This document shows positions 10,538 through 32,000 of a DNA stretch of 32,000 bases, piece by piece. The notes under the pieces are model-generated. The model did no database searches, was not told where the DNA came from, and worked only from the letters and a program-made list of their open reading frames with translations. Made by a program: the position numbers and the translations under genes. The stretch comes from an uncultured Methanobrevibacter sp. (lineage in GTDB: Archaea > Methanobacteriota > Methanobacteria > Methanobacteriales > Methanobacteriaceae). How positions within the stretch are numbered: the stretch's first letter is position 1; every line of letters begins with the position of its first letter. The DNA lies in contig NZ_CAJOKH010000025.1 in NCBI RefSeq assembly GCF_905235195.1, positions 2,852 through 34,851 on the forward strand. Reading direction: 5' to 3'.

Positions 10538-13231
10538 TTATTTATTTTTTAGTTCTTCATACAAATCTCTTGCATCTGTATGGGATGGATTTATAGTTAA
10601 AGCTTTTTTTAAAAAGCTTTTAGCACCCTCTATATCCTTCTGTTCATTTAATATATCTCCAAGTAAATACCATGCATTTGAATAATTATTATCTATATTA
10701 ATTATTTCAACCAAAATATCTTTGGCCTTAGAATAATGGCCCATATCATATAATTGTAAAGCTTCAACATATTTGTTTTCTACTTCTCTAAATTCATGAT
10801 CTATAGATTCTTGAATTTGATTAAATAAATCTTCATTTGTATTTACATTAAGTGTATTTCTTTTTAAATTTTTATTTAACTCATCTATATCATCATATAC
10901 TATTATGTCTTCTTTTTTATCTGAAAGATTAGTAAATATATAATCAAGAACATATTTTGTAGCATTTTTATTTAATGGCTTATTATCATTTCCACATTTT
11001 GGAGAATATATACATTTAGGACAACCATCTTCACACTCACATGTATCAAGCAATTGTTTTGTAGATTTAACAAGTTCATAGAATACATCTATTGCTTTTT
11101 CACTAATACCTATTCCACCTTCAAATGCATCATAAATAAATATTGTAGCAGTTTCTGTATCTTTATGGAAATTTGTAGACATTCCTCCAATATCAAATCT
11201 ATCACACATAGTATGAAGTGGAAATAAACCGATAAGTGCATGTTCTGCACCGTGAAGACCGCCAGCAAATACCTGTTTATTATCAGGATATTTTTCTTCT
11301 AATTCATCTTTTAATTTCTCATCAACAGTAAACCACAATCCTTTTGTTTTAAATTTTAATGGAGGTAAATCAAGTTTGTATTGGCCTATAAGTTTGGAGA
11401 AATGTATTTTATTATATTTTTTAAAGTTTTCAATAACCTCTAAAAGACCAAAATGTACTGTAAAATCTCCAATTTTAATTTTTTTATATTTTTCAAGTAT
11501 ATTAATGTCCGTATCTTTTAAAACATTAGTATGATATTCAACGTTTTTCTTAATAACATTAACAAAGTTTTTTTCAAAGTTTACACTTCTTACTATATAG
11601 GTTTCACTTTGATGAATTAAAACTGCACCTTCATATGCTTCTGAGTAGACCTGTGCTAATTCCATTGTTTCAATTAATTTTCCATCACACATAATCATAA
11701 ACATATTATTTGACAATTGATCTAAGGAATGATTAAATGAGGGACTATCATTTGAAGTGTAATAATACTGATTTTTTAGATTTTTTTCAATATACTGATT
11801 TTGTGATAATTCTTTAAGTATAAATTTAGTTTCATTTTTATTTAATTCTGGTGAAAAGTCATGTAATTCCTCTTCTCTAAGAGGTAATTCATTTGCTGCA
11901 CATATAAGATGGGCATTTAAAAGAATTTCATTTTTTAAATCTACAATTGCATTTTCATGACTTCTTCCAAAGAAAAATTCAGGATTTTTCATAAAATATT
12001 GGTCTAGTTGGTTTTCAAAAGCAACTAAAATAACAAGGGATTTTTCTGCTCCACGACCACAACGACCTCCTTGTTGCCATACAGAAACCATGGTTCCAGG
12101 ATAACCTGATATTATAACTGCATCTAATGTACCAATATTTATTCCAAGCTCCAAGGCATTTGTAGTTGTTACTCCTAAATATTTCCGTGACTTAAGACCA
12201 TTTTCTATCTCACGTCTATCTTCAGGAAGATAACCTGCACGATATGCTGTAATTCTACTTGTTAATTTACTTTTATATTCTGTCATATCATTTTTAGCCC
12301 ATAAAGCAATTAATTCTGCAGTTTTACGTGAAACAGTAAAACATAAAGTTTGTATGTTTTTCAAAAGTAAAAATAAGAAAATAAATTCTATTTCCTGATG
12401 GAAACTAGGTTCGTTTTCTTTATTACGTTTAGTCCTTTTAAAAGTTTTATAAGGATTATATAAAATAAAATCTTTCTCACCACTAGGAGATGAATCATTT
12501 GAAATTAACTCAAATTCACATCCTGTTAATTTATATCCATGTTCTAGAGGGTTTGCAAGTGTTGCAGAGGATAATATAAACTGTGGATTAGACTTATAAA
12601 AGTTACATATACGTTTAAGTCTACGAATTAAAAGTGCAACATTACTTCCAAAAATACCCTTGTAATAATGAGATTCATCTATAACAATATATTTTAGATT
12701 AGAATAGAATCTCTTCCATTGATGATGCCATGAAAGAATGTGGTGCAATTGATAAGGATTAGTTAAAACAATTCGTGATTTTTGTCTTATTCCATACTTC
12801 TCATCTTTAGGAGTATCTCCATCGTAACATGCAGGGTTAATTTCTATACCCATTTCCTTTTCATAATTTTTAAGGACTTGAACTTGATCGTTTTCAAGTG
12901 CTTTTGCAGGATAAATATATAATGCTGTTGCTTGTTCATCTTCTATTAATTTATTTAAAACAGGTAAATTAAAACATAAGGTTTTTCCACTAGCTGTGGC
13001 TGTTGTAACTATAATATTCTTACCTTCACGAACCATTTCATATGATTCTGCCTGATGAACATATAAACTAATATTCTTTTCGTTCAAATATTCAAGAATA
13101 ATATCATTAAGACCATTAACTTTTTTATAACTAGCATCATGAGAAGGAATGGTTTCTATATATTCTATTTTCTTTTTAAATCGAATATCATTCTTAAATT
13201 TGTCAATTTGTATATCAGCCATATTATCCAT
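10538..13231 (-). CDS. DEAD/DEAH-box SF2 helicase with C-terminal DUF1998 metal-binding Cys cluster (MrfA/YprA, COG1205-like) fused to C-terminal TPR repeats
   Basis: An 897-aa ORF with helicase motifs TATASGKT (I), VIDESHYY (II, DExH), SSAT (III) and QQGGRCGRG (VI). The Cys cluster CECEDGCPKCIYSPKCGNDNKPLNK is typical of DUF1998. The last ~70 aa (YDMGHYSKAKDILVEII..NAWYLLGDIL...AKSFLKKALTINPSH) look like TPR repeats. Confidence 0.85.
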   Translation of the reverse strand: MDNMADIQIDKFKNDIRFKKKIEYIETIPSHDASYKKVNGLNDIILEYLNEKNISLYVHQAESYEMVREGKNIIVTTATASGKTLCFNLPVLNKLIEDEQATALYIYPAKALENDQVQVLKNYEKEMGIEINPACYDGDTPKDEKYGIRQKSRIVLTNPYQLHHILSWHHQWKRFYSNLKYIVIDESHYYKGIFGSNVALLIRRLKRICNFYKSNPQFILSSATLANPLEHGYKLTGCEFELISNDSSPSGEKDFILYNPYKTFKRTKRNKENEPSFHQEIEFIFLFLLLKNIQTLCFTVSRKTAELIALWAKNDMTEYKSKLTSRITAYRAGYLPEDRREIENGLKSRKYLGVTTTNALELGINIGTLDAVIISGYPGTMVSVWQQGGRCGRGAEKSLVILVAFENQLDQYFMKNPEFFFGRSHENAIVDLKNEILLNAHLICAANELPLREEELHDFSPELNKNETKFILKELSQNQYIEKNLKNQYYYTSNDSPSFNHSLDQLSNNMFMIMCDGKLIETMELAQVYSEAYEGAVLIHQSETYIVRSVNFEKNFVNVIKKNVEYHTNVLKDTDINILEKYKKIKIGDFTVHFGLLEVIENFKKYNKIHFSKLIGQYKLDLPPLKFKTKGLWFTVDEKLKDELEEKYPDNKQVFAGGLHGAEHALIGLFPLHTMCDRFDIGGMSTNFHKDTETATIFIYDAFEGGIGISEKAIDVFYELVKSTKQLLDTCECEDGCPKCIYSPKCGNDNKPLNKNATKYVLDYIFTNLSDKKEDIIVYDDIDELNKNLKRNTLNVNTNEDLFNQIQESIDHEFREVENKYVEALQLYDMGHYSKAKDILVEIINIDNNYSNAWYLLGDILNEQKDIEGAKSFLKKALTINPSHTDARDLYEELKNK

Positions 13232-13447
13232 TAAACCTTTAAATTAATATTTATTATAATAATTTATTAATTTTAAATAGAAAAAACCCTTAAATAATTC
13301 TAAAAAAATTTATATAATATTTATAAAAAATTAATTTATAAATAAAAGTATTATAATATATTATATAATTAGATAATTACTTATATTTAAAATTTAAATA
13401 TTATTACGTAAAATATTTGATTATATAAAAATTTGTGAAGTGATTAA

Positions 13448-13645
13448 ATGACTGGGAAAAAACTATATCGTTCATATGATAATAGAATGCTTGCTGGTAT
13501 ATGTGGAGGAATAGGAGAATACTTAAATATAGACCCAACCATTATTAGATTAATAACTGCTTTATTAATTTTTCTATGGGGTTTCGGTATTATATTTTAC
13601 TTATTAGCTTGGATAATTGTTCCAAACGAAATTGACATAGTTTAA
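13448..13645 (+). CDS. PspC-domain membrane protein
   Basis: A 65-aa ORF. LYRSYDNRMLAGICGGIGEYLNIDPTIIRLI followed by one TM helix (LLIFLWGFGIIFYLLAWIIVP) matches the PspC-domain signature. Confidence 0.8.
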   Translation: MTGKKLYRSYDNRMLAGICGGIGEYLNIDPTIIRLITALLIFLWGFGIIFYLLAWIIVPNEIDIV

Positions 13646-13755
13646 TCAATAATTTATAATAAATTTAAATATTAATATACAGATTAAATATAATACTATT
13701 TTTTTACATAATATTTAAAATAATAATCAATTATATTTCTAAATAAGGATTTAAT

Positions 13756-16210
13756 ATGATAAGTTATGATGAATTTGAAAAAATTGTTGTAGAAATTCTT
13801 AAAAGAGATATTTCTTCAAATCAAGATCAAAAATCAGCTATTGAATCTGATTTGAATAAATCTCTTTTTATTGTAGCAGGTCCTGGTTCTGGTAAAACTA
13901 CTGTTATTGTACTTAAAATTTTAAAATATATTTTTGTTGATGGAATTGAACCAGAATCAATTATTGCCACTACTTTTACCCGTAAAGCTGCTGATGAGAT
14001 AACAAGCAGAATCCTAGATTGGGGATATAAAATAAAAGACTATCTTTTAAGAAATCTTTTAGAATATAATATGGAAAATGATGATTTAAGAAAAATTGCC
14101 CATATTGATTTTAATCTAATTATAACTGGAACAATTGACAGTGTTGCAACAGAACTTATAAAGGTTAATCGTGAAGCAGGTACAAATTTACCTAATTGAA
14201 ACATATGTTGCACAATCTGCAATGACCAATATTGGCGTATATGCAAATGATAGATATTTAAATAAAGACCTCCAGGAATATGTAGGAGAATTTTTCGAAT
14301 TTACAGATGCAATTAAAAATCCATCAGAAATTGCAAAAATGATACTGTCAATTAGAGAGAAAATGTATTATAATATGGTTGATTTTGATGATGCATTTAG
14401 CGATATATCAGACCCTGGTGAAAATATTATAAGGGATGCTATACTTGATTATGAAAAAGAATTAAAATCAAGAAATACTATTGATTTTCCAATGTTAGAG
14501 TCCTTATTTTTAGAAAAACTTGACAGTGAAAAGTTCAAATCTTATCTTGATAATATTAAACTAATTCTTGTAGATGAATATCAGGATACTAATCTTTTAC
14601 AGGAAAAAATCTATTTCAAGCTTGCAAGGGATGTTATTAAAAATGGAGGAAATATTACTGTTGTAGGTGATGATGACCAATCATTATATCGTTTTAGAGG
14701 TGCTACTGTAGATTTATTTACTAATTTTCCTATTCGTGCAAAAAAACAATTAGGTATTGATATAAAAGAGGTTAATCTTAAGGATAATTACCGTTCAACT
14801 GAAAACATTATTAATCTATGTAATCATTTTGCTTCATTAGATGAAGAATATCAAAATGCACGTGTATCACATAAACCCCCAATTAAATGTCCAAATACAA
14901 ATGAGGAAAAAAACATACCTATCATTGGACTTTTTAGACCTAGTCCTCAACTTTTAAGTCGTGACTTAGCTATTTTTATAAGTGAATTAATTACAAAAGG
15001 AACTGTCAAAAGAGAAGTAAAATCAATAGTTGATACAAAATCATTTAAACTCATAAATAAAAGTGAAGATAATGATGAATTAATCAAAAAATCAAAATTA
15101 TTTGATATGAATAAAATAAAGGATAAACAATATATTGAAATTAGTTTGGATAAAAATAATGGTTCTCCTAATGATATTGCATTTTTAACATATTCACCAA
15201 AAGAAAATACGGCTTCACATAAAAATAAATTTACATATTATCTTAGGAAAAATTTACAAAGACGTAAAATTGAAGTATTTAATCCTAGAGGTAAAGAAAT
15301 TCATGACATTGAATCTGTTAAAATATTCTGTGGCCTTATCCTTGAATGTATAGATCCTGATAGAAAAATAGAAAAACAAGATAAATCCATCCCTCTTTCA
15401 GCTATTAGATATATGAAAAAATGGAGAGAATCTGCACAAAAATTTATAGATAAAGACCCAGAACCAAATGAACCTATAAGTATAAAAAGTTTTGTTGAAC
15501 ATTGGCAGTTAAGAAGACCATACAATCTTAAAAAATGGCCAAATAATACTAGACTAATGGATCTTGCATATAAATTAATTACTTGGATAGATTCACTTCA
15601 AGATGATATTGAAGGCCTTGTATACCTACAGGCAATATGTCAAACAATTACTCAAACCGGATTTTTCAATGAATATGGTTCTACCATATACTTTGACAAT
15701 CCTACAAAAGAACAGAAATCAATAGATGAATTATACTGGAATATTTTTATACCTATTGCAAATGGAGGAATAAAAATTGATGAAGAATTATTTGAAACTT
15801 TACCTAATGACAGATTAAATATTATGAGTATTCATCAATCAAAAGGATTAGAATTTCCAATGGTTATTGTTGATGTAGGTAGTGAATATAAAAAAGATTT
15901 GAAACGTACCAGTTATCAAAGATATCCTTATAAAGGCGGAGGAGATTTTGAGCTTGAAGATAGAATTCGAAAATACAATAATGACTTTGAAATAAAAAAT
16001 AGAGAACAACTTGACCGTTCATTTGATGATTTGATTAGACGTTATTTTGTTGCATTCTCAAGAGCTCAAGATGTTTTAATACTAATTGGATTAGATACAT
16101 GTATATATGGATATGATATGGAAGATAAACATAAAACAATTCCAAACATTGCTTTAGGTTGGAATAGGAATAAAGAATTCATAGGTTTTGATGAGATATA
16201 TATGATTTAA
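13756..16210 (+). pseudogene. UvrD/PcrA/Rep-like SF1 helicase, split by a single-nucleotide frame change at ~14185-14200 (ORFs 13756-14199 and 14171-16210)
   Basis: The N-terminal ORF carries motif I (AGPGSGKTT) and Ia (TFTRKAADE). The second ORF, shifted one nucleotide forward (needing a +1 shift), carries II (LVDEYQDTN), III (VVGDDDQSLYRFRGA), IV (NYRST), V (SIHQSKGLEFPMVIV) and VI (YFVAFSRAQDVLIL). The two overlap by 29 nt, and the first ends at TGA 14197-14199. An AAGGA lies just upstream of ATG 13756. Confidence 0.85.
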
Positions 16211-16213
16211 TTA

Positions 16214-16320
16214 ATCATAAAATTAATTTAATTATATCTATTGGATATGTTAAAAAAACTTATTTATTAATTTCTATCATAAAATTATTTAAATATATTA
16301 TTTAAAATGTTAAAAAAAAA
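16214..16320. repeat. Two imperfect ~45-bp direct repeats (period 62 bp) in the helicase-nuclease intergenic region
   Basis: 16214-16258 reads atcataaaattaatttaattatatctattggatatgttaaaaaaa. 16276-16320 reads atcataaaattatttaaatatattatttaaaatgttaaaaaaaaa. Confidence 0.6.
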
Positions 16321-16539
16321 TAATTTTATTTCAAACAAATCCAATAAAATAAAATAAAATTAATATAATTAATTATTAAATTCATTAAAATAAGTAATTA
16401 AATAAATAATATGACAATCAATAATAAAATTTAAATTAATAAAAATATAAAATAATCAAATTATCCGAATTATTAAGTATATAGAATTATTAGATTTTAA
16501 AAGTAAATAAAAATTCGAAAAAATATTATAAGGTGGATT

Positions 16540-17841
16540 ATGAATATAAAATCAAGATCTAAACCATATTTTATACCAGAATATAGTCTTACAGGGGATC
16601 TATTATCCTTTTTAACATGTAACTTACAGTACAGGTATCAAAATAAAGGAACTTTACCTCCATCAATGCCTATCCAATTATGGTTTGGAGAATTTATACA
16701 TGGAGTTATGGAAGAAGCATTTCTTAAATGGGAAGCTGAAAAAAAAGAATTTCCTTGGAATTGGGAATTAGATATAAGGCCAATAGAAGAAATGATCGAT
16801 CAAAGATTAAGATCAAGAGGATTAAATTCTCCACCAAAACAATTCTGTCCTGAACATTTACCAGAAGAGAAAATTGGAAAATATAAATTAGAGGATAATC
16901 CATATCATAGAATTGCTAGTGCAAGAGCTGAAAAAGCAATTAATATTTGGGGTAAAGACATATTTCCACTTATTAAATCTACTGAATTATTGATTAAAGG
17001 TATAAGAGATATGCCTAATTATGATGAAAAATTAAGTCGCTCTAATCATTATGGTATAAATGGTGTAATAGATGGATTAATATCTGTAACCCCTCAGGAT
17101 ATAAAAAATATCACAACTACACTTTTAAATAATAATAATCAAGACCATAATATATTAGAATCTGATATAGACAAACAAAAATCTCTTGATTTATTTGGTA
17201 TTGAAACTAATGAAAATACAGATACAAACCATTTCCTTGAATTGTTAAAAGAAACTCCTCAAGTTAAAGAATATTTAAGCAATAATAAATTAGATGAATT
17301 TGAAATAATAATAGATTATAAAGGAATGAAAAGGCCATCTGTTAATAGTGAAACATTTCAACACCATAAATGGCAAGTATTAACTTATTCTTGGCTCAGA
17401 TGCCAACAAAAAGATGCAAAAGAAATACCTGCAGGAATAATATTATATTTAAATGAACTTGTCCCTTCAACTATGGATTTAATTGCAATTAAAGAAGACA
17501 TAATTAATGATAAAAATGATGTTAAAATTTCTAAAAAAGATATGGATTCTTTATTTGAATGGGACGGCAGTGAAAAATATTATCCTACTTTATCTGATGA
17601 ATTTAGAATTAACCGTTCTATTAGAATTATTCCAATCAATAAACAGGAACAGGATGAAGCGCTTTTAAGTTTTGATAAAGTTGTAAATAATATTGAATCA
17701 TCTCTTATTAAAGAACAAAATGGATGTAAAATATCAAAATCATGGATTGGAAAAGCAGATAAAAGAACTTGTGATGCATGTGATTTTAAAATGATTTGCC
17801 AAAAAAACAAAGGTGAACTTGATGATATTACAGTCCCCTAG
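16540..17841 (+). CDS. PD-(D/E)XK nuclease of the Cas4/AddB (RecB-like, 4-Cys Fe-S) type
   Basis: A 433-aa ORF with a strong SD-like AGGTGG at 16531-16536. The motifs occur in Cas4 order: N-terminal Cys (FLTCNLQY), GxxxH (FGEFIHG), D (INGVIDGLI), DxK (IIIDYKGMK), QxxxY (WQVLTYSW) and C-terminal CxxCx5C (CDACDFKMIC). Large insertions include an Asn/Asp-rich low-complexity linker (TTLLNNNNQDHN...NENTDTNH). Confidence 0.75.
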   Translation: MNIKSRSKPYFIPEYSLTGDLLSFLTCNLQYRYQNKGTLPPSMPIQLWFGEFIHGVMEEAFLKWEAEKKEFPWNWELDIRPIEEMIDQRLRSRGLNSPPKQFCPEHLPEEKIGKYKLEDNPYHRIASARAEKAINIWGKDIFPLIKSTELLIKGIRDMPNYDEKLSRSNHYGINGVIDGLISVTPQDIKNITTTLLNNNNQDHNILESDIDKQKSLDLFGIETNENTDTNHFLELLKETPQVKEYLSNNKLDEFEIIIDYKGMKRPSVNSETFQHHKWQVLTYSWLRCQQKDAKEIPAGIILYLNELVPSTMDLIAIKEDIINDKNDVKISKKDMDSLFEWDGSEKYYPTLSDEFRINRSIRIIPINKQEQDEALLSFDKVVNNIESSLIKEQNGCKISKSWIGKADKRTCDACDFKMICQKNKGELDDITVP

Positions 17842-17948
17842 ACTATAAATATAATAAAAATTAAAAAAATTAGTATTTATATATAAAGTTTAGAATTTAT
17901 ATTTTATAAAAATAAAAAAATTAAGAATAATGTGAATTAGTAGGTTAA

Positions 17949-18635
17949 TTATTTTTTTTGTTTATTATCTTTAGTATTCACATCTTTTTTATCATTAACT
18001 TCATAATCTACATCAATTGAATCGTCATTTGATTTATTTTCTTCTTTCATTTCAGAAATATCTTTATAGACAATTTTTACAGTTTCTTTAACATTATTTT
18101 TAGTATTTCTAGCTTCTTCAATATATTCGTCTTTCTTAGCTTTTAATATTTCTTCTGCAGCTTCTCTTTTAACTTTAAGTTTTTCTATTTTAATTTTTAA
18201 AGCTTCTTTTTGTTCTTGTGATTGTTTTCTTTGAAGTTCAAGTATTTCAGCTTTATGTTTTGATATCAATTCATCTCTTTCGATTTTTTGTTTTTTTCTT
18301 AAAGATAATTCAACATCTTCCTCTTGTGGTGATTCTGGGAAGTTTTCATCTGCATAATCAATTGCATTTTTTAATTGGTCCTTAACATATTCTTTTCCTT
18401 TAGAAAATGAATCTTCACCATTTTTTACTTCTTCTAATTTAGAATTTGCTTTATCTAAAGTTTCATCCATAAATTGATTTGCTTTATCATCAGCAATAAC
18501 AGCGTATTTTTTTCCTAACTCTTTAGTAAGAGTTTTAAATTCATCGTCATCAAATTGTTTAATTCTTTCATTACCATATTCATATACAACTTTACCAATT
18601 TTTAAACTTTTTTTTGTAAGTCTTGATAATATCAT
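17949..18635 (-). CDS. Coiled-coil protein, unknown function (paralogue of the upstream gene, with an extra Lys/Glu-rich C-terminal extension)
   Basis: The track ORF extends to 18644 via GTG. ATG at 18635-18633 is preceded by AGGTGA, which directly abuts the TAA stop (18648-18646) of the upstream gene and shares its final A, so I prefer that start. The N-terminal ~100 aa align by eye with the 140-aa neighbour (L.K.L..G...Y.Y...R.K...D.E...LT..L........KA....D......KLEE.K...DSFS..K.....L..A.D.AD). The rest is predicted coiled coil. Confidence 0.6.
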   Translation of the reverse strand: MILSRLTKKSLKIGKVVYEYGNERIKQFDDDEFKTLTKELGKKYAVIADDKANQFMDETLDKANSKLEEVKNGEDSFSKGKEYVKDQLKNAIDYADENFPESPQEEDVELSLRKKQKIERDELISKHKAEILELQRKQSQEQKEALKIKIEKLKVKREAAEEILKAKKDEYIEEARNTKNNVKETVKIVYKDISEMKEENKSNDDSIDVDYEVNDKKDVNTKDNKQKK

Positions 18636-18645
18636 TTTCTTCACC

Positions 18646-19068
18646 TTATTTATTTTTATTTTTTAAATCCTTTAATTCTTTTGCTTGTTTATTTTTTAAA
18701 TCTTCTAATTCTTTAATTTGCTTTTTCATAAGTTCATATTCTTCATCTACAGATCCCCCATTGTATGAATCCAAATAGTAATCTGCCTTGTCAACTGCAT
18801 CTTGAAGTTGAGCTTTCCTCTGGGATTTTCTAATTGAAAAAGAATCCTTACTTGATTTAGCTTCTTCTAATTTAAGGGTCGACAATTCAATTGCCCTATC
18901 CAAAGCATGATCTGCTTTAAGTTCTCCAATTTGTATCCATTTCATTGTTAAATCATTAGTTAATCTAATCATTTCAGGATCACTTAGAGACTTAAGTCTT
19001 TGATAGCCATAAGAGGATAAATTTTTTCCAAGAACTAAACTTTTATTTATTTTATTAAAAATTCCCAT
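18646..19068 (-). CDS. Coiled-coil protein, unknown function (starts MGIFNKI...)
   Basis: A 140-aa ORF and the first gene of a two-gene unit with the 17949-18635 paralogue. The C-terminus has a repeated KELEDLKNKQAKELKDLKNKNK heptad-like sequence. Confidence 0.6.
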   Translation of the reverse strand: MGIFNKINKSLVLGKNLSSYGYQRLKSLSDPEMIRLTNDLTMKWIQIGELKADHALDRAIELSTLKLEEAKSSKDSFSIRKSQRKAQLQDAVDKADYYLDSYNGGSVDEEYELMKKQIKELEDLKNKQAKELKDLKNKNK

Positions 19069-19404
19069 AAAATCACAAGAAATTATTATTATAAATTATG
19101 TATGTTTTTATTATATTAAATACTTTGTATATAATTTTACCAAATTAATTAAAATATAATAAATATATAATTTCAATATCGATAATAATTTATATTTATT
19201 TAATTTTGATTAAAGCTAATATAAAACAAGGTTTAAAATAAATATTTTAAATATTTAAATTTTTTATAAATAAAAGAATAATTTAATCTTAAATAAATTT
19301 TAAAGACATATATACATTATAAATCAGTATATATCTGATTATATTGTAAAACAATTTATTAGCTTAGAATAATTTATAATAATAAAGTAAACAAAATTTT
19401 ATAT

Positions 19405-20019
19405 TTAAAGTTCGATGCTTTGGAATTTTAAAATTGCCATCTTACCAGCAGTTGTTAAGACTAGTTCCTTTGGATTAATATAACCTGAATGTCTCAAATC
19501 TTTTATATGGTTATAAACCATACTGGAAGATAATTCGGTTTTTTCTGAAATGTCTTTAACATTATCTGCACCTTCATTAATATAAAGGAGAATTTTAACC
19601 TTATTTTTTGAAATATTATAATCAAATATTGGTAAATCAACTATTTCTTCATTTTTAGGATCTAATATTGTTAGTTTATAAATATCTTTAATAAATGAAC
19701 ATGATGCATAAGATAATGCAATAGATTCTATAGAGTTATTTTCAATTAAATGTACAATAACATCATTTTTCTCTTTTATTTCTGTTGAAATAATATTAAA
19801 TGTTTGTGAAGCAATAGTTAATATGTCTTTATTAGATATCTCTTTAATTTTTATTTTTAAATGTCGTCCTCTTTTTTTATATAATTCTTCCATTATATCT
19901 TTAATTTCAGGATAATTTTTATTATCTGTTAATAATACAATAGTTTCAGGTTCAAATTTATCTACAGCTAATAATAATGATTTTAAATCAAATATAGTGG
20001 AAATTAAACTAATGGTCAT
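19405..20019 (-). CDS. Putative transcriptional regulator: N-terminal Rossmann-like (possibly Csa3/CARF-like) domain + C-terminal winged HTH
   Basis: The track ORF starts at GTG 20028, but that GTG is part of an AGGTGA SD-like box 5 nt upstream of ATG 20019-20017, so I prefer the ATG. The C-terminus (ILLYINEGADNVKDISEKTELSSSMVYNHIKDLRHSGYI) is a clear ArsR/MarR-style wHTH. The N-terminal ~130 aa alternate short hydrophobic strands and helices (TIVLLTD, IKIKEI, VIVHLIENNSIESIALSYA, KLTILD), the same architecture and size as Csa3. Confidence 0.55.
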   Translation of the reverse strand: MTISLISTIFDLKSLLLAVDKFEPETIVLLTDNKNYPEIKDIMEELYKKRGRHLKIKIKEISNKDILTIASQTFNIISTEIKEKNDVIVHLIENNSIESIALSYASCSFIKDIYKLTILDPKNEEIVDLPIFDYNISKNKVKILLYINEGADNVKDISEKTELSSSMVYNHIKDLRHSGYINPKELVLTTAGKMAILKFQSIEL

Positions 20020-20174
20020 ATTTATCACCTAGGCAAATATATTATTAAAATCAAGAGTCCATTCCAATATTGAAAATTTAAAAAAAATAAATTATCATAT
20101 TTTAAATAAATCATTATCAGATGTATTTAATTTTATAATTCTTTTAAAAGAGATGTAAAAAAAATATTATAAAA

Positions 20175-20768
20175 CTATAAACTTAAAAGTATTTTAGCTG
20201 CATTATTTAATTTTAATGAATCTTTTTCAATAAAACCTACTTCTCTTAAATCTCTAATATGATTGTAAACCATACTATGACTACGATTTACAGATTTTGA
20301 TATATCTTCAATAGTATTTTTTCCATCTTCTATATTTCTTAATATAACTTTTTTAGCATCAGATAGCTTAAAATCAAACAATGGTAAATATATTATTTTA
20401 TGAAGATTAGTATCATACATTATTACAGATTTAATAATATCTTTATTATAACATGTAGCATAGTATAATGCATTATTTAACATAAAATTTTCAATATTTA
20501 ATTTTACTACTATATTAGAAGATTTTTCAGCCTCTTTTATTATAAATTCTGAAATTTCTTTACATGAGACCTTTAAATCTAAATTTTCTACATTTAAATT
20601 AAGTATATTTATATCTATATTTTCAAAAATCGGGTCAGTTTCTAAATTTAGCAAATTAATCTCTTTATTAGAAACGAGGATTAATTTTTTAATATTATAC
20701 TCTTCTGTAATGTTTGAAATATCATCTAATTTTGTTTGAGTAGAAACAATGGTAATTTCATTTAACAT
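20175..20768 (-). CDS. Paralogous putative regulator: Rossmann-like (possibly Csa3/CARF-like) N-domain + C-terminal wHTH
   Basis: A 197-aa ORF with the same architecture as 19405-20019. Shared stretches include LPLFDFKLS/LPIFDYNIS, K.IL..I..G....DIS......SMVYNHI.DLR..G(F/Y)I, and an internal (V/I)V(K/H)L(N/I)IEN / LIENN segment. Confidence 0.55.
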   Translation of the reverse strand: MLNEITIVSTQTKLDDISNITEEYNIKKLILVSNKEINLLNLETDPIFENIDINILNLNVENLDLKVSCKEISEFIIKEAEKSSNIVVKLNIENFMLNNALYYATCYNKDIIKSVIMYDTNLHKIIYLPLFDFKLSDAKKVILRNIEDGKNTIEDISKSVNRSHSMVYNHIRDLREVGFIEKDSLKLNNAAKILLSL

Positions 20769-20914
20769 TATTAATAAATAATATTTATTAATATATAATA
20801 ATTTCGTTTTTTTCCTTTATTTAACAAAAAATTAATTAAAAATTATGATTTTCCATAAAAAATATTGAAAAATAATATTTCAAGTTTGAATTAATCAAAT
20901 ATTAAATTGTAGGA

Positions 20915-21285
20915 TTGAATACCTCAAAATAAGCTATTGTTAATTTATATATTAATAAATAAATTAGATATAACTATAGTTAATTTAAAGGCCTGTAATT
21001 TTATATATTTTCAATCAATCAAAAAATATACCGCTTTATTGTAGTAATAAATTAAAATTTATTTTAAATCAATACAAAAATATAATAGCTTATTGCAACT
21101 ATATTAAAATTTATTATAAAATCAATCCAAAAAATATACCTCTTTATTGAGTAATAAATTAAAATTTATTTTAAATCAATCTAATAAATATATGGCCTAT
21201 TGCAACTATATTTAAATTTATTTTTAATCAAACTATAAAAAAAACTTCTTTATTAAGTATTATTTTAAAAATATTATATATTTTT
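20915..21285. repeat. Intergenic tandem repeat array, ~52-54 bp period, two alternating unit flavours (higher-order ~107 bp unit)
   Basis: U1 (21015-21068): tcaatcaaaaaatataccgctttattgtagtaataaattaaaatttattttaaa. U2 (21069-21121): tcaatacaaaaatataatagcttattgcaactatattaaaatttattataaaa. U3 (21122-21175) is nearly identical to U1. U4 (21176-21227, ...tatggcctattgcaactatatttaaattt...) is closest to U2. Degenerate units flank the array on both sides. Confidence 0.8.
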
Positions 21286-21310
21286 AATTTATTGAATATT
21301 AATAAAATAG

Positions 21311-25493: not shown

Positions 25494-25910
25494 ATGTTTG
25501 AAGAAGAAAAAGATGAAAAAATATATAATCTCTTAATTTCAAGAGGTGAAAGTGATGCTAATGATCATAAGCAATTTTATGAAAAATTATATTCTAAAAC
25601 TGATTTTCTATGGAAAGAATCAGTAGCTGCATCTTACAGCCATATGCCAGAAAGTTTTTTTAAAAAAATAGATACTATTATCATACTTAGTGGTGTTTAC
25701 AAACAAAATAAAGAAGAAATAGATGATATTATAAATGCTTCCAAACATTATGATATACCAATAGTACTTGTAAGGCCTTATGGTGTAGAAGAAGTTCCTG
25801 AAAATTTAGAAGATGTTGCAACTACAATTATTGGATGGAATGCCAATTGTATTGTAGATGAGATAAAAAATGTTGTAAATGGAGAATATGATGAACTAGA
25901 TGATTTCTAA
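25494..25910 (+). CDS. Small TIR-like domain protein (MTH538/DUF1863-like), acidic termini
   Basis: A 138-aa ORF with the beta-alpha pattern of the MTH538 TIR-like family (Pfam DUF1863). It reads strand IYNLLISRGESDAND, then TIIILSGVY..NKEEIDDII..A, then PIVLVRPYG...VP, then IIGWNANCI. The assignment is by pattern memory, not a search. Confidence 0.45.
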   Translation: MFEEEKDEKIYNLLISRGESDANDHKQFYEKLYSKTDFLWKESVAASYSHMPESFFKKIDTIIILSGVYKQNKEEIDDIINASKHYDIPIVLVRPYGVEEVPENLEDVATTIIGWNANCIVDEIKNVVNGEYDELDDF

Positions 25911-26028: not shown

Positions 26029-28812
26029 TTAATTTATATCATCAGTACTAATTTCAGAATTTCCCTGTTTTTTAACTACTTTAATTATATTGTCAGCTGC
26101 ATTTTCTAATTCTTCATCATGTGTAACAATTATCATTTGAGGAAGTGTAGACATTTTTCTAAGTAAGTCTATAAGTTCTCCTCTTCTATAACTATCAAGA
26201 TGAATTGTAGGTTCATCTAAAAGAATTGTTTCCATTGCACCATTACTCATGGCCTTAGTAATACCAAGTCTAAGTGCAAGTGCAATAGCTATTTTTTCAC
26301 CCCCACTTACCATATTTAAGCTTGATTCTCCTTCCGGACCATATAATGTTACATTAAACTCATCATCTAAAATAAGACTTGAATAATCAAAATTAAATTC
26401 TTCAAAGAAATCCTTAGTATACTTTTGAATAGTAGGTCGTGATAGTTTTCTTAAATCTTCTTGAAGGCCATCTTTTGAAAAGAGTTCTCTTATATTTTCT
26501 AAGAATTGTATATAATCTTTTACATTTTTATAGTCTTCTTCAAGAGTATTATATTCATCCTCTAATTTTTGAAGAGATTCTATTGATTCTTCAATAGTTT
26601 TTGATTCACCTTCTAATCTAGATTTATCATTGTTAATTTTTAATCTATTATCTTCTATACTTGCAAGTTGCAATACAAGGGCATTATATTTTTCATCATC
26701 ATATTTAATCGATTTAATTGCTTCTTTATATTTTAAAAGATTTTTTTCATTTTCGCTGAGAGTTTTTTTCTTATTTTCTAATTTTGATTCAACTGATTCT
26801 TTAACTTGAATTGTTCCCTTAAGTTCACGATAATTTGCAACTTTATCTTCCAAATCTTGAATTTTACTGTTTATATCTTCAAGTTCCATGTCTGAATTTA
26901 AACCACTGTCTTTACTCATAGCAAGTTTAATAATATTTACTTCATGGTCTTGATCATCATTTAAAAGCTTGATTTTATTTTCAATTTGGTTTAATGGAGG
27001 AAGAAGTTCTATTGCTCCTTTTGCCTTAATATATTTATTGTAGCCTTCCTTAGATAAATTACGTCTATCTGTTTCTATTTGAATATTTTCATTTATTTTA
27101 TCTAAATCTACATTATTAACTTTATTAGAATTACTTTCCTTTTCAAGTGTTTCTAATTTCTTTTTTAACTCAACAATTCTTTCTATTAAATAAGAATTAG
27201 AGGATATATTTTTCTCAATTAAGGAAAGATTATTTATTTTTTCTTTAATTTCACTTTTTTCAGATTCAAGTTTTTCAATATCCTCTTTATTTTTCTTAAT
27301 ATTATTTGTAGAATTGATTATAGCATTTTTATAGGAATTTTTTAAATCAATTTTTTTCATATTAGAAATAGTTGATTGACATATCGGACATTTATCACCT
27401 ACAGACTCTAGTTCTTCTAAAATATTTTCACTTTGAGATATAATCTGATGATACTGTGAGTCTTTTGAGCTTTTCTTTGAAATTAACTCATCTATACCTA
27501 TAATTTTTTCTTCTAATTCTTCAATTCTTTTTATAATCAATTCACTGATTTGACCTAAATCCTCATTATCATTTTTTAAACTAATATTATTTTCTTTTAA
27601 ACTGTTAAATAATTCAGATTGAAATTTATTGAATTTTTCATTTTCTTTTTTATATTCTTCTTCTACTATCTCTAGATCTTTTGTAATCTTTTCATAAACT
27701 TTAATTTCACTATTCATTTTAGATTTTTCTTCTTTTAAATCATTAATAATAGTTTCAAGACGGTTATAATCATTATAAATTTGTTCGTTTTCTTTTAAAA
27801 TATTATTTTGATAAATAAAACTTTCTTTTTGTTTATTTAACTCTTCTTTCTTTTGGGTAATATCCATGATTTTCAAATAGGCTTGCCTAAATTCTTTATA
27901 GATAGGTAATCTATCTAAATATTTACCAAGTCTTAATACTTCAGATTCATTTTTTCTAATATCATCAAGTTGTGTTTGAAGTTCTGATTTTTCTTGTTTT
28001 AAACGTTCAATATCGTTTAAACTTGTTTCAATCATATTTTTATAATTAATATACTCATCTTTATTAGCTTCTAAACTTAATTTTTTAGTATTTATATCTT
28101 TATAAAGTATCTCTATTTGATTTAACTCTTCTTGAATTTTTATAAGTTCAGTAGATAAATTATCATATTTTGATTGTTTATCTTTAAGTTCTTTAGTATT
28201 TTCATCTTTTCTAGATAATTTACCCCTATATTCAGATTCTAATTTTTCATAATCTGAGATAAATTTTTTAATATTAGTCCATGATTTTTCAAGAGAATCT
28301 ATACCTAAAAGTTTTCCTATAAGTTTTTTCTTCTCAGAAGGAGTTTTACTAATAAGTTCTGCAATTTCTCCTTGACGAACATAAATAGCATTTAAAAACA
28401 AGTCTGCATCCATCTGTAAAATATTTTCAATTTCATTATTTACACTTCTATCTCCTTCACATATCATAGTATTAACATAATTAGACTTGTCATGATTTAA
28501 TTGTTTATAATATAATTTTGCATGTGATATAGATTTTTCCTTAGATCTTGTAACCTTATAGTGATTACCATTAGATATGAACTCTAATGTAACTTCCATA
28601 TTATTAAGAATTGTTTTATCATTAGATGTTCTAATTAAATCTGATATTTTATTAGAAGAATGTTGTTTAAATAATGCAAAACTAATAGCCTCTAAAATAG
28701 TAGACTTACCTGCACCATTTTCACCGATTATAAGAGTAATACCTGGATTAAATTGAATTTTAGTATTTAAATAACTTTTAAAATTTTTGAGTTCCAACTT
28801 TTCAATAATCAT
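26029..28812 (-). CDS. rad50: DNA double-strand break repair ATPase Rad50
   Basis: A 927-aa ORF with Walker A GENGAGKST at the N-terminus, a very long coiled coil, a central zinc hook CPICQ, the C-terminal signature SGGEKIAIALALRL and Walker B ILLDEPT. The ATG directly follows the mre11 TAG stop, and a GGTGAT SD lies within the mre11 3' end. Confidence 0.95.
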   Translation of the reverse strand: MIIEKLELKNFKSYLNTKIQFNPGITLIIGENGAGKSTILEAISFALFKQHSSNKISDLIRTSNDKTILNNMEVTLEFISNGNHYKVTRSKEKSISHAKLYYKQLNHDKSNYVNTMICEGDRSVNNEIENILQMDADLFLNAIYVRQGEIAELISKTPSEKKKLIGKLLGIDSLEKSWTNIKKFISDYEKLESEYRGKLSRKDENTKELKDKQSKYDNLSTELIKIQEELNQIEILYKDINTKKLSLEANKDEYINYKNMIETSLNDIERLKQEKSELQTQLDDIRKNESEVLRLGKYLDRLPIYKEFRQAYLKIMDITQKKEELNKQKESFIYQNNILKENEQIYNDYNRLETIINDLKEEKSKMNSEIKVYEKITKDLEIVEEEYKKENEKFNKFQSELFNSLKENNISLKNDNEDLGQISELIIKRIEELEEKIIGIDELISKKSSKDSQYHQIISQSENILEELESVGDKCPICQSTISNMKKIDLKNSYKNAIINSTNNIKKNKEDIEKLESEKSEIKEKINNLSLIEKNISSNSYLIERIVELKKKLETLEKESNSNKVNNVDLDKINENIQIETDRRNLSKEGYNKYIKAKGAIELLPPLNQIENKIKLLNDDQDHEVNIIKLAMSKDSGLNSDMELEDINSKIQDLEDKVANYRELKGTIQVKESVESKLENKKKTLSENEKNLLKYKEAIKSIKYDDEKYNALVLQLASIEDNRLKINNDKSRLEGESKTIEESIESLQKLEDEYNTLEEDYKNVKDYIQFLENIRELFSKDGLQEDLRKLSRPTIQKYTKDFFEEFNFDYSSLILDDEFNVTLYGPEGESSLNMVSGGEKIAIALALRLGITKAMSNGAMETILLDEPTIHLDSYRRGELIDLLRKMSTLPQMIIVTHDEELENAADNIIKVVKKQGNSEISTDDIN

Positions 28813-29949
28813 CTAATCACCCCCATATCTATCAGCATAAAAATCTTTAACACTATTTTCTGCATCTTCAAGATTATCCTTAGATAATTCATCAAATAAA
28901 TCAATGGTGAAAGTTACCACTTTTTCTCCTTCATCTTCTAACTTATCCTTAATTAATCTATTAATATTAATTGGTCCTGGATTATAATCAATATTGTCCT
29001 TATCATTCTCTTTGAAATCAAATGTTGGCCTATAAGATAAGGATAAATCTGAAAGTTCTTTGTTTAAATATTCATAAACTTCACTACTTGTAAAGTCACT
29101 ACCAAAAACATTTATATTAATAATTGGTTTTAATTCAAGTTTACTGATTTGGTCTGTTAATTTAGGTATTTCAGTGTAAAGGTTCTTATAGTCAACATTA
29201 ACATTAATGAATTTACGTGGCAAATCAACAGAAATTCTTTCAGTTTCTACATGACCGTCATCCATTTCAACAAGAACAAAACCTTTACCATTAATATTAT
29301 AATCATTTAATTCATTTGACTTCCAAATCTCAGTAGAACCGGGATATACTAAACGACCTTCACCATAAGAATCATTAATATAATTATGTAAATGACCCAT
29401 TGCATAATAATTAAAATTAGTTGGAATATCTCCAATTTCAAGCTCACATTGTGGAATATACTTGTCTATACCTTGATGCAATACTAAAATTTTATTTGTA
29501 GAACCTTTAGCTTTTTTAGATAAGGTTTCTAATTTTTCTTTAATTGCTAAATTTCTATTTTGAGGCATATATGGCACTCCACCAATAAAGTAATCTTCTT
29601 CTTTAAAATAAGGTTTAATAGGACTAATTAGTTTTATACCATTATCTCGAAATAGTACTTGGGGAGGTATTGGATTAACTCTGCGTGATAGGTCATGGTT
29701 ACCTGCAATGGCATAAAATGGAATACCTGCATTAGTTAATTTATTAATTTCTTTTTGTACTACTATAAGTGCATCTGTAGATGGACGTGAACTATCAAAC
29801 AAATCACCACTATGAATAACAAAATCCAAATCTAATTTTATAATCTTATCTATAATCCTTTCAAATCCGTTATAAAAATCTTTTTCACGGTCAATTAAAC
29901 CATACTGCCTATAACCTAAATGAGTATCAGATAAGTGTGCAAATCTCAT
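28813..29949 (-). CDS. mre11: DNA double-strand break repair nuclease Mre11
   Basis: Calcineurin-like phosphoesterase motifs are present: HLSDTHLG, GDLFD, GNHD, HQG and GHLH. The track ORF starts at TTG 29964. I prefer ATG 29949-29947 (MRFAHLSDTHLG), which matches the usual Mre11 N-terminus. Confidence 0.93.
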   Translation of the reverse strand: MRFAHLSDTHLGYRQYGLIDREKDFYNGFERIIDKIIKLDLDFVIHSGDLFDSSRPSTDALIVVQKEINKLTNAGIPFYAIAGNHDLSRRVNPIPPQVLFRDNGIKLISPIKPYFKEEDYFIGGVPYMPQNRNLAIKEKLETLSKKAKGSTNKILVLHQGIDKYIPQCELEIGDIPTNFNYYAMGHLHNYINDSYGEGRLVYPGSTEIWKSNELNDYNINGKGFVLVEMDDGHVETERISVDLPRKFINVNVDYKNLYTEIPKLTDQISKLELKPIININVFGSDFTSSEVYEYLNKELSDLSLSYRPTFDFKENDKDNIDYNPGPININRLIKDKLEDEGEKVVTFTIDLFDELSKDNLEDAENSVKDFYADRYGGD

Positions 29950-30152
29950 GATATCCCTAAACAAAACTTTTTATAGTAAATTAAGTATTTAATTAAATAG
30001 TAATACAAAATAATTTAATCTCTAAAGAAATTTTCTAATTAAAAAATAAGAATAAATATAATAATTAAAATTTCTTGAAATTAATAATTAATTATAATTT
30101 TATTAAAATCTACATATAAAATTTATTAAACATATTATAGAATTTTAAATAT

Positions 30153-31400
30153 ATTTAGGGGCCTGAATTTTTTCGAAGAAAATTAGCTATAATTGCCATT
30201 ATTTTTATAATTTACCATGTCATTATATTATAGCTTCTAAAAATACAAATTAAAATAGTTTTTTTAATAAAAAAGGTTTTTAAATCCTTAAATTTAAATA
30301 ATATGTGTTATATATATTTATTTGGAGATAAAAATGAAACACAAAATAAATTTAGATATTAAAGACCCAAATTATACATTGTGAAAGAGATATTTAAAAT
30401 TATGGATTGCAGAGAATCTTCTGAAATTTTAGCTTCTTGTGGTTTTAAAAACATTGATAAACAAGTATTTACTTTAAATCATATTTATCAGTATGTTCTT
30501 TGGTTTAGACATTCCATTCATATTGTATGAGCTTGAATCTAAAGAAAAACTTCGTAAATAATTTAATATTTCTGAAGTTTAAAGTGCTGATCAAGTTTAT
30601 AAAAATTTTTCACAACAGGACTCAGAAAAACTTGTTAAAGCATTAAATCCTATCTTAAATTCAAGAAATCGTGTTAAAAGAAGAGGAAAAAATATTTTCA
30701 TTGTTTATGCTACACCTATGGACTTGGATATTAATTTTCATAGAAATAAAAAGACTAAATAATATCTCAAATCATTGAATTTAAAATGGAGTTATTCTTC
30801 TAAAGGATTTTATATTGGATTTAAAGAACTGTTATAATTGATTTCGATAATATGAACCCTGTTTCTATTTTAATCCATTCTGGATTCCAAATGATGGAAA
30901 ACTTTTTGACGAAATTATGGAAAATCTTCAAAAACAGACGTATTATTCAAAAAAGAGATACATTAATTTTTGACAAAGCTATTACAGCTATAAAAACTAC
31001 CAATTGGAATTAGCAAATATAAATCATTCATTTTATTCTCGCAAAAGACAATTTCAAAAGAAACAAACTAAATGACCAATTATCCTACCCATTATCATCA
31101 TTTATGAAAAAATAAAATTAAAAATGAAAAAAGATTTTTTAAGATTCTAAAAGATGAATTATTAAAAAAATTAGATAAATGGAAAAACTTCAAACCAATT
31201 AGAGTATAAATAGAAGATTTTTTTAAATTACTAAAACAAGGACTTAATTTAAGAGAAATTCATAAATATACACCAAAATCTGTTGAAAAAACAGTATATC
31301 TAAATGTATTTTAAGAGCATTAATTATATCACAAGGATTTAAATCAAAAACAGCCATACAACAATTATCTGAAAAATTGAAAAATTCAGAACCCCTAAAT
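30153..31400 (+). mobile_element. Decayed insertion sequence (IS4/IS5-superfamily DDE transposase pseudogene) with imperfect ~22-bp terminal inverted repeats
   Basis: IR-L at 30153-30174 is ATTTAGGGGCCTGAATTTTTTC. The reverse complement of IR-R at 31379-31400 is ATTTAGGGGTTCTGAATTTTTC. The internal reading frame from ATG 30335 shows transposase-like stretches (IFIVYATPMDLD; NDGKLFDEIMENLQK; a D-K-x-YYSYKNY-like segment; R-x3-E-x6-K in IRV*IEDFFKLLK). These are interrupted by more than a dozen stop codons and several frame changes. Confidence 0.7.
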
Positions 31401-31623
31401 AAGATTTTTATCTAAGTTTCTCATATGAAAAAATCTAGCATCTTATATTTTTAAATTGTATTTTTTTTTAGAATGAATAATTAATGAGGTTCTAAATTAA
31501 TGAAATATCTTTGTGGAGTTAATATTTTTAATGTAAATTTCCAAAGGGCCTAAATTATTTTTAAGCACAAAAAATTAAGAAAATTAATCTTTTTTTTTAG
31601 ATTATAAGATTTTTAAAAAAATA

Positions 31624-31661
31624 GAAAAAAAATTAAGAGTTTATTATAATAAAACTCTTAA
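31624..31661 (-). terminator. Hairpin + oligo-T terminator-like element downstream of the adhesin-like gene
   Basis: A perfect 10-bp stem (31633-31642 ttaagagttt / 31652-31661 aaactcttaa) with a 9-nt loop. On the minus strand it is followed by T8 (complement of 31625-31632). It sits 19 nt after the stop at 31680. Confidence 0.5.
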
Positions 31662-31679
31662 AATATTATATAATTTTTT

Positions 31680-32000
31680 TTATGGTTTTACAGTTATTTT
31701 AACTTTTTTTGTTACTTTATTGTAGTAATGGTTTCCTGTAGATGTTATAACTGCATTGTATGTACCTGTTTTCTTAAGATTTCTTATTGTAAATGTTGCT
31801 TGACCTTTACTATTAGTTTTAGTAGTATATGTTTTACCGTTAATTTTTATTGTAACTTTTTTGTTTTTTACTATTTTGTTTTGGTTCATTAATCTTACAA
31901 CATATTTTTTAGCTTTTACTTTAAGTTTATAGCTTGCTGATTTTGCAGTTATTTTTGGAGTAGCCTTTTTAACTGTAACTTTTCCTAATGCTGATGAAGC
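31680..32000 (-). CDS. Adhesin-like protein, C-terminal end (partial; continues beyond the window end)
   Basis: The reading frame stays open from 32000 down to the stop at 31680; the M at 31889 in the track is internal. The Lys/Thr-rich Ig-like repeat sequence (KKVTIKINGKTYTTKTNSKGQATFTIRNLKKTGTYNAVITSTGNHYYNKVTKKVKITVKP) is characteristic of Methanobrevibacter/Methanosphaera adhesin-like proteins. Confidence 0.7.
   Translation of the reverse strand, partial: ASSALGKVTVKKATPKITAKSASYKLKVKAKKYVVRLMNQNKIVKNKKVTIKINGKTYTTKTNSKGQATFTIRNLKKTGTYNAVITSTGNHYYNKVTKKVKITVKP

Follow-up and report, generated by a model that had tools for sequence, protein, structure and literature searches.

A conserved repair helicase–nuclease pair beside a variable gene slot: a probable composite origin for a 7.5-kb block in Methanobrevibacter

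Between DNA repair genes and cell-wall genes of an uncultured Methanobrevibacter lies a 7.5-kb block (positions 13756-21310 of the 32,000-nucleotide stretch of contig NZ_CAJOKH010000025.1 analysed here, hereafter the window) made up of a helicase gene, a nuclease gene, two pairs of paralogous genes and a repeat array. Do these parts belong together? A sequence-only reading of the window had proposed that they do, as an accessory or defence-type module inserted as a whole, in which a regulator-controlled helicase and nuclease would act with a pair of coiled-coil proteins as scaffold or effector. Using profile searches, structure models and comparison of the neighbourhood across related loci, we find that what that reading observed is largely right, including the positions of the six genes and the array, the convergence of the two strands at 17841/17949 and the housekeeping-type flanks (uvrA, uvrB and an MrfA-like helicase on one side; PmurB, pMurC, pMurD2, rad50 and mre11 on the other), whereas its interpretation of the whole as one module does not hold. 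We consider it probable that the block is a composite, in which a conserved repair helicase–nuclease pair adjoins a variable slot that carries an orphan pair of charged proteins, a degenerate pair of Csa3-type regulators and a recent repeat. The window is very AT-rich (GC content 0.17-0.33), and its nearest matches come from uncultured Methanobrevibacter.

The helicase–nuclease pair and its neighbourhood

The composite nature of the block emerges from the position of its plus-strand half in other genomes. Scans of genomes and metagenomes yielded 91 loci with the nuclease, onto which we mapped the window's proteins; these loci were collapsed to 56 nuclease clusters at 90% identity, and our counts use only the clusters that were testable for a given feature. 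The helicase gene lies immediately upstream of the nuclease gene in 46 of 50 clusters, and two of the four exceptions still have the genes adjacent with longer spacers (429 bp in L042 and 743 bp in L085), which brings the count to 48/50. The gap between the two genes has a median of 17 bp and does not exceed 20 bp in 50 of 77 loci, and the genes overlap in L083 (by 8 bp), L086 and L090. A divergent MrfA-like gene stands upstream of the pair in 27/34 clusters, and a DUF169 gene lies near it in 31/38. Among L001-L011 and 80 metagenome loci, an MrfA-like gene on the minus strand is followed by helicase and nuclease on the plus strand, a variable slot, and then PmurB, the pMur ligases, the 138-amino-acid (aa) gene g138, Rad50 and Mre11, the commonest order being mrfA(-) helicase(+) nuclease(+) DUF169(+) pmurB(-) pmurD2(-) g138(+) rad50(-) mre11(-). 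In the higher-GC relatives L077 (3307-11188) and L083 (3583-11179), mre11, rad50, helicase and nuclease form a contiguous, co-directional and nearly gap-free run. All block genes have ratios of nonsynonymous to synonymous substitution (dN/dS) of 0.09-0.46 against the sister species L011. We conclude that the pair is core repair machinery of Methanobrevibacter and its higher-GC relatives and not an insertion; this half is syntenic and near-invariant across both groups, and insertion of the entire block, as had been proposed, is not borne out.

The nuclease (16540-17841, plus strand, 433 aa) is a PD-(D/E)XK enzyme of the AddB/Cas4 type (PF12705, E-value 1.9e-10). Invariant across 33 homologues are four cysteines (C27 and C411-x2-C414-x5-C420), from which we predict a 4Fe-4S cluster, and the residues H54, D178, D259-Y-K261 and Q279-x3-Y283; together, the cysteines and catalytic residues make up the Cas4/AddB signature. 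An AlphaFold2 model of the protein (predicted local distance difference test score, pLDDT, 73) finds the AddB nuclease domain as its best Foldseek match, followed by AddA, Cas4 SSO0001, ACE1 and MGME1. The protein does not qualify as Cas4 itself, scoring 23.7 bits against a TIGR00372 cutoff of 65 in a window that has neither cas genes nor a CRISPR array.

Its partner (13756-16210, plus strand; PF00580, PF13361 and PF13245) is a UvrD/PcrA-like helicase of superfamily 1A (SF1A) that is split in the window into open reading frames (ORFs) of 147 aa (13756-14199) and 679 aa (14171-16210). PF00580 (UvrD-helicase) matches both (7e-22 and 1e-22), with the Walker A motif GPGSGKT in the first ORF and DEYQD and motif VI in the second. 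The top NCBIfam match is AddA, at 104 bits against an equivalog cutoff of 708, and the best PDB matches are UvrD1, UvrD, PcrA, Rep and AddA. The protein is a divergent SF1A enzyme of the UvrD/PcrA/Rep type; it ends after motif VI, and a Pfam scan found no nuclease domain in it.

Of the flanking genes, the one divergent from the pair (10538-13231, minus strand) encodes an MrfA/YprA-like superfamily 2 helicase of COG1205 with an MZB/DUF1998 domain (Pfam DEAD, Helicase_C and MZB), and rad50-mre11 (26029-29964, minus strand) are likewise recognized by Pfam. The spacers of the block had been described as unusually long; their lengths stand (329, 336, 146 and 542 bp), but housekeeping spacers elsewhere in the window measure 110-446 bp, and long spacers are a genome-wide trait of very AT-rich lineages that is not specific to the block.

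Several features of the neighbourhood vary around this conserved arrangement. The DUF169 gene follows the nuclease directly in most lineages (for example L008 11244-11924, and about 30 other clusters); in the window it lies at 758-1438 (minus strand), 15 kb from the nuclease and past uvrA/uvrB and a major facilitator superfamily transporter, indicating that the neighbourhood has been rearranged in the window's clade. On one contig of a metagenome-assembled genome (L004, 1-4268), genes for a PPDK_N-domain protein and a pseudomurein-binding transglutaminase precede the nuclease in place of the helicase and MrfA, which points to local rearrangement or else to misassembly. In L077, a DUF2357+PDDEXK_7 gene lies upstream of mre11 (762-2540), and a 2847-aa ORF followed by a DprA-like gene lies downstream of the nuclease (11592-20135). 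HerA is encoded upstream of mre11 in L008 and L009 and was undetectable in the window by tblastn, where the roughly 2 kb to the right of mre11 (29965-32000) have no ORF of at least 80 aa. Between mrfA and the helicase sits a 65-aa PspC-domain gene (13448-13645, plus strand; PF04024, 9e-27) that is confined to the window's clade (L001, L002, L006, L007 and L011), all other loci having the same spacer without it. Finally, in nearly every Methanobrevibacter locus examined, pMurD2 and rad50 flank the 138-aa gene (25494-25910, plus strand), whose sole match is a weak one to the Pfam family ThsB_TIR/PF08937 (E-value 0.015).

The variable slot downstream of the nuclease

Variation from lineage to lineage is confined to the segment between nuclease and pmurB, which corresponds to 17842-21310 in the window. 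Most lineages have DUF169 alone in this slot, and L010 has an HNH gene, three unknown genes and DUF169. Many AT-rich lineages carry an ExoIII-like gene with a single gene for a protein that joins a CARF domain to one of the winged helix-turn-helix (wHTH) type. The charged pair occurs in L003-L005 and L082, of which L004 and L005 have no CARF gene and the contigs of L003 and L082 end first; in the window, L006, L007 and L011 it is joined by two CARF genes, and in L002 by one seen before the contig end, while L001 combines the long charged paralogue only with two CARF genes. In total, the charged pair is present in 5/42 testable lineages and a CARF-wHTH gene within 7 kb downstream of the helicase–nuclease pair in 14/32; the charged pair occurs without CARF in L004 and L005, and CARF without the charged pair in 11 clusters. 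These differing contents mean that the charged pair and the CARF genes have different distributions, independent and only partly overlapping, which goes against the suggestion that the parts form one unit. The description of the block as accessory-type DNA therefore fits the variable, lineage-specific segment with its duplicated components, but not the helicase–nuclease half.

The two genes nearest the nuclease encode lysine- and glutamate-rich proteins that are nearly free of proline and glycine. The longer (17949-18644, minus strand, 228-231 aa) belongs to a lineage-specific orphan family, and the shorter (18646-19068, minus strand, 140 aa) covers the shared N-terminal ~135 residues; the latter is absent from L001. 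That the two are paralogues, as had been proposed, is borne out (36% identity, E-value 2e-17), whereas their description as coiled coils is not, a crude heptad test being inconsistent. Searches of Pfam, NCBIfam, PADLOC and PHROGs assign them to no family. A word-index search retrieved 20 homologues, a profile search of 1.84 billion proteins retrieved 8 representatives, and no relatives were found in IMG/VR or among GenBank phages. With dN/dS against L011 of 0.25 (longer) and 0.16 (shorter), both are under purifying selection. An identity as PspA/IM30, prompted by an "MGIF..." start, a DPE motif and the nearby PspC gene, was rejected: no Pfam match was found at E-values up to 10, and hhalign gave a probability of 0.4% against an E. 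coli PspA sequence.

Further along the minus strand lies the second duplicated pair (37% identity, E-value 1e-20), which had been described as sensor-like wHTH proteins and can now be named more sharply as CARF-wHTH proteins of the Csa3 type. Copy 1 (19405-20028, 204-207 aa) and the more divergent copy 2 (20175-20768, 197 aa) match the PADLOC model CARF3 (PDLC01849) over their full lengths, at 1.8e-41 and 2.4e-24, and are matched also by the CasR and Csa3 models and, in Pfam, by HTH_5 and TrmB. Neither reaches the TIGR01884 cutoff of 60.2 (44.1 bits for copy 1, 48.2 bits for copy 2). An AlphaFold2 model of copy 1 (pLDDT 85) matches the Csa3 structures 2WTE, 6WXQ and 6W11 best in Foldseek (E-values of about 1e-8), followed by CARF ring nucleases, Can2, Csm6 and Cam1. 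Searches of PDB sequences with these proteins, as single sequences or as profiles, reached only wHTH proteins, so the CARF assignment needed the PADLOC profiles and the fold search. The two genes have the lowest GC content of the window (0.17-0.20), copy 2 has a dN/dS of 0.46 against L011, and no relatives of the proteins were found in IMG/VR or GenBank phages.

We further find that the two copies have lost residues by which CARF proteins recognize their ligands. Close relatives of the window's copies number 5 matches; distant single-copy relatives (195-200 aa) occur in 11 other clusters, the higher-GC group included, at a distance of 1-6 kb downstream of the nuclease, and mostly keep a CARF beta4-alpha4 loop of the form N-I-S-G-G-(E/R)-(R/K), which is degenerate in L059 and L073. 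The loop that these single-copy proteins keep fits the published ligand motifs, which are (D/N)-x-(S/T)-x3-(R/K) for CARF proteins in general and L-x2-G-phi-R for motif 2 of Csa3 (PMC8844856). In our alignment, the loop is replaced by H-L-I-E-N-N-S and K-L-N-I-E-N-F in the window's copies, and copy 2 also lacks the aromatic-Asp of motif 1 and so has lost both Csa3-type ligand motifs. Since the loop is replaced in both copies, they appear unlikely to bind cyclic tetra-adenylate (cA4) in the canonical mode. In about 10 lineages (for example L042 11540-13347, L059 9688-11125 and L073 12901-14351), the single-copy CARF-wHTH gene comes with an ExoIII-like gene (Exo_endo_phos), the two being either convergent or in tandem with CARF first; an ExoIII-like gene is absent from the window.

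The slot ends in the array that had been described as having two flavours of repeat, and Tandem Repeats Finder agrees: at 21006-21270, five ~54-bp units in the order A-B-A-B-A amount to a 107-bp two-unit block repeated 2.5 times (periods 54 and 107 bp, 83% matches, score 352). The array sits between two genes, shortly past the stop codon of pmurB and upstream of CARF copy 2. In the sister species L011 there are two units and the spacer measures 383 bp, against five units and 542 bp in the window, the promoter-proximal 235 bp of the spacer aligning well between the two, and L001 has a spacer without repeats; the units recur neither elsewhere in the window nor in the loci retrieved. The array is a recent 107-bp tandem duplication; it may be neutral, or it may supply extra copies of an operator or promoter element. 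A CRISPR array was considered and rejected, the period being 54 bp, the variable halves coming in two recurring flavours in place of unique spacers, and no CRISPR direct-repeat family of Rfam matching. A structured RNA was rejected too, with no Rfam match at the gathering score, one chance-level match at E-values up to 10 and folding z-scores of 0.06 and 0.59. A scan for sigma-70 promoters and terminators gave 49 sites against 40 ± 7 expected, in an organism that is an archaeon.

Alternative explanations

The split helicase had been counted among the marks of an accessory block. The split is real: a 5-bp deletion (CTGTA) at 14194/14195 shifts the frame and parts Walker A from motifs II-VI, and one could posit on this basis that the lineage is losing its helicase–nuclease system and that the block is a degenerating relic. 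Two independent assemblies tell otherwise: L006 (from ENA, matching over 21.3 kb) and L007 (from Logan, over 8.2 kb) show 100% identity with the window apart from these five bases, retain CTGTA and encode an intact 819-aa helicase; the gene is also intact in L001, L002 and L011. Because the deletion is missing from L006 and L007, the frameshift is private to the window sequence, neither a feature of the locus nor a mark of the block. The nuclease, moreover, is fully intact, and against L011 the helicase and nuclease have dN/dS values of 0.13 and 0.12, respectively. A lone 5-bp indel in otherwise identical DNA is consistent with an error of assembly or sequencing, or with a mutation that arose very recently. 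We read the deletion accordingly, either as an assembly error or as a mutation that inactivated the helicase only very recently; decay of the system is, on these grounds, very unlikely.

The defence-type module of the sequence-only reading, spanning the whole 7.5 kb, in which the charged pair would serve a regulator-controlled helicase–nuclease as scaffold or effector, draws on families that are common in defence islands, and UvrD–Cas4 fusions and COG1205 helicases are often defence-associated (PMC5704561); a CARF gene also lies near the pair in the 14/32 lineages noted above, which keeps a regulatory link between the two conceivable. Yet a PADLOC search of nine proteins found no complete catalogued defence system, only generic matches to GajB-type UvrD, a weak Cas4 match and CARF3/CasR/Csa3, and no GajA, cas, CRISPR or restriction-modification genes were found in the window. 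The helicase–nuclease pair keeps its fixed position in nearly all lineages with or without the charged pair or CARF, the latter two occur apart from each other, the convergent halves of the block are separate transcription units, and in some relatives the pair joins mre11-rad50 co-directionally. The synteny data largely refute the single module, which we hold to be highly improbable. A narrower proposal would confine the module to the minus-strand half (17949-21270), as a self-contained signalling or defence cassette functionally unrelated to the pair and possibly a remnant or satellite of a CRISPR-Cas or cyclic oligoadenylate (cOA) system elsewhere in the genome. It would account for the co-direction of the four genes, for a segment whose GC content falls to the lowest in the window over the CARF genes, and for the very narrow distribution of close relatives of both families, and it accords with the classical link of the CARF family to CRISPR and the binding of Csa3-like proteins to CRISPR leaders (PMC7465815, PMC5587795). 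The charged pair and the CARF pair differ in phyletic pattern, however; the single-copy CARF relative has long resided in a repair neighbourhood (ExoIII-like, UvrBC) and not at cas loci; both copies in the window have lost the canonical ligand loop; and neither cas genes that would place a Csa3-type gene at a CRISPR-Cas locus nor a CRISPR array occur within the 32 kb. No viral relatives were found, and an origin from a virus or mobile element was rejected in its own right, PHROGs giving only generic helicase and Cas4-like matches. We regard the cassette as unlikely.

A candidate repair circuit and its relation to known systems

If the block is a composite, what might its conserved half do? The closest counterpart among well-described enzymes is AddAB (PDB 3U44, 4CEJ), with which the pair shares a UvrD-like SF1A motor and a RecB-family nuclease with a 4-Cys Fe-S cluster (here predicted), down to the one N-terminal and three C-terminal cysteines. 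In contrast to AddAB, the window's nuclease is a 433-aa protein with a PD-(D/E)XK core and insertions that lacks the ~1100-aa inactivated helicase-like body of AddB, and the helicase lacks the C-terminal nuclease domain of AddA, leaving one nuclease where AddAB has two; for want of these parts, the pair is not AddAB proper. Unfused operons of UvrD and Cas4-like (pfam12705) genes in repair-like contexts have been described mainly from Clostridiales (Hudaiberdiev et al. 2017, PMC5704561), and the same study linked COG1205/DUF1998 (YprA) helicases to Cas4-like nucleases in bacteria and mesophilic archaea. The window resembles the former in that UvrD-like and pfam12705 genes lie side by side on one strand, outside a defence context and among repair and cell-wall neighbours, and the latter in the COG1205 helicase with a DUF1998/MZB domain that adjoins the pair. 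It differs in combining two contexts that were treated separately there and, in some of its relatives, in having the pair appended directly to mre11-rad50. Literature searches found nothing specific on this gene pair in Methanobrevibacter or Methanobacteriales.

Turning to the regulators, the window's CARF proteins share with Csa3/Csa3a of Sulfolobales an N-terminal CARF domain, a C-terminal wHTH domain and a length of about 200 aa. In Sulfolobus, Csa3a has herA, nurA, DNA polymerase II and genes of the DNA-damage response among the targets that it activates directly (PMC5587795, PMC7515695), and this control of repair genes parallels the genomic position of the window's CARF genes, so that a repair-directed role for the CARF pair is a reasonable analogy and its regulation of the neighbouring repair genes plausible. 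The window's genes are unlike Csa3 in lying away from cas, in scoring below the TIGR01884 cutoff, in lacking the cA4-binding loop and in forming a tandem diverged pair. A second point of comparison, by description and not by sequence, is MM_0565 of Methanosarcina mazei, a DNA-binding CARF-wHTH dimer with regulatory effects beyond the cas operon (PMC7465815); it is likewise a CARF-wHTH protein of a methanogen, but its gene belongs to a type I-B CRISPR locus and those of the window to a repair neighbourhood.

From these likenesses we suggest how the composite block may work. The pair belongs to an old repair neighbourhood comprising the MrfA-like helicase, UvrABC, an ExoIII-like gene and Mre11-Rad50, and would act, probably with Mre11-Rad50, as a minimal AddAB-like machine for processing DNA ends or lesions, the helicase loading at an end or nick and unwinding with ATP while the nuclease breaks down the strand that is displaced. 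The slot that follows the nuclease gained the charged orphan pair in the window's clade, and its Csa3-type gene is present there as two diverged copies without the canonical ligand loop. These copies may serve as DNA-binding transcription factors, as homodimers or a heterodimer, either independent of a ligand or tuned to a different one, and may control their own expression and perhaps that of the adjacent repair genes, in the manner of Csa3a in Sulfolobus. A bolder version, which we put forward tentatively and rate as rather doubtful, is that a Csa3-type CARF protein was recruited as the resident regulator of the repair neighbourhood, that the pair is a minimal archaeal AddAB-like resection machine working with Mre11-Rad50, and that in the window's clade the duplicated regulator lost its cyclic-oligoadenylate pocket and, with the charged pair and the multiplied upstream element, forms a repair circuit independent of CRISPR.

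Several points tell against this account of the composite block. The AddAB-like mechanism is based only on domain content, fold and gene neighbourhood, and the nuclease model behind it is of limited quality over the N-terminal residues 1-43 (pLDDT below 50) and has low TM-scores to AddB (0.32-0.37). Given the associations reported in PMC5704561, the pair may conceivably have a defence role. Control of repair genes by the CARF proteins is pure analogy, with no operator identified; a CARF gene is absent from the helicase–nuclease neighbourhood in 18 of 32 testable lineages, and in the clade at 64% nuclease identity L004 and L005 have none, the contigs of L003 and L082 ending first. The two copies, moreover, could stem from local duplication or from re-acquisition.

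For the annotation of such genomes, the lesson of the composite block is that an apparent defence island can consist mostly of conserved repair machinery with a small variable slot. The pair of UvrD-like and AddB-like proteins, near-universal in Methanobrevibacter and related methanogens, is a candidate for the poorly understood process of end resection in mesophilic methanogens. Csa3-type regulators that reside in a repair neighbourhood, away from cas genes, would echo a link between Csa3a and repair that has been shown experimentally only in Sulfolobus, and the paralogues that have shed the ligand loop are naturally suited to testing what role is left to a CARF domain that lacks its canonical pocket.

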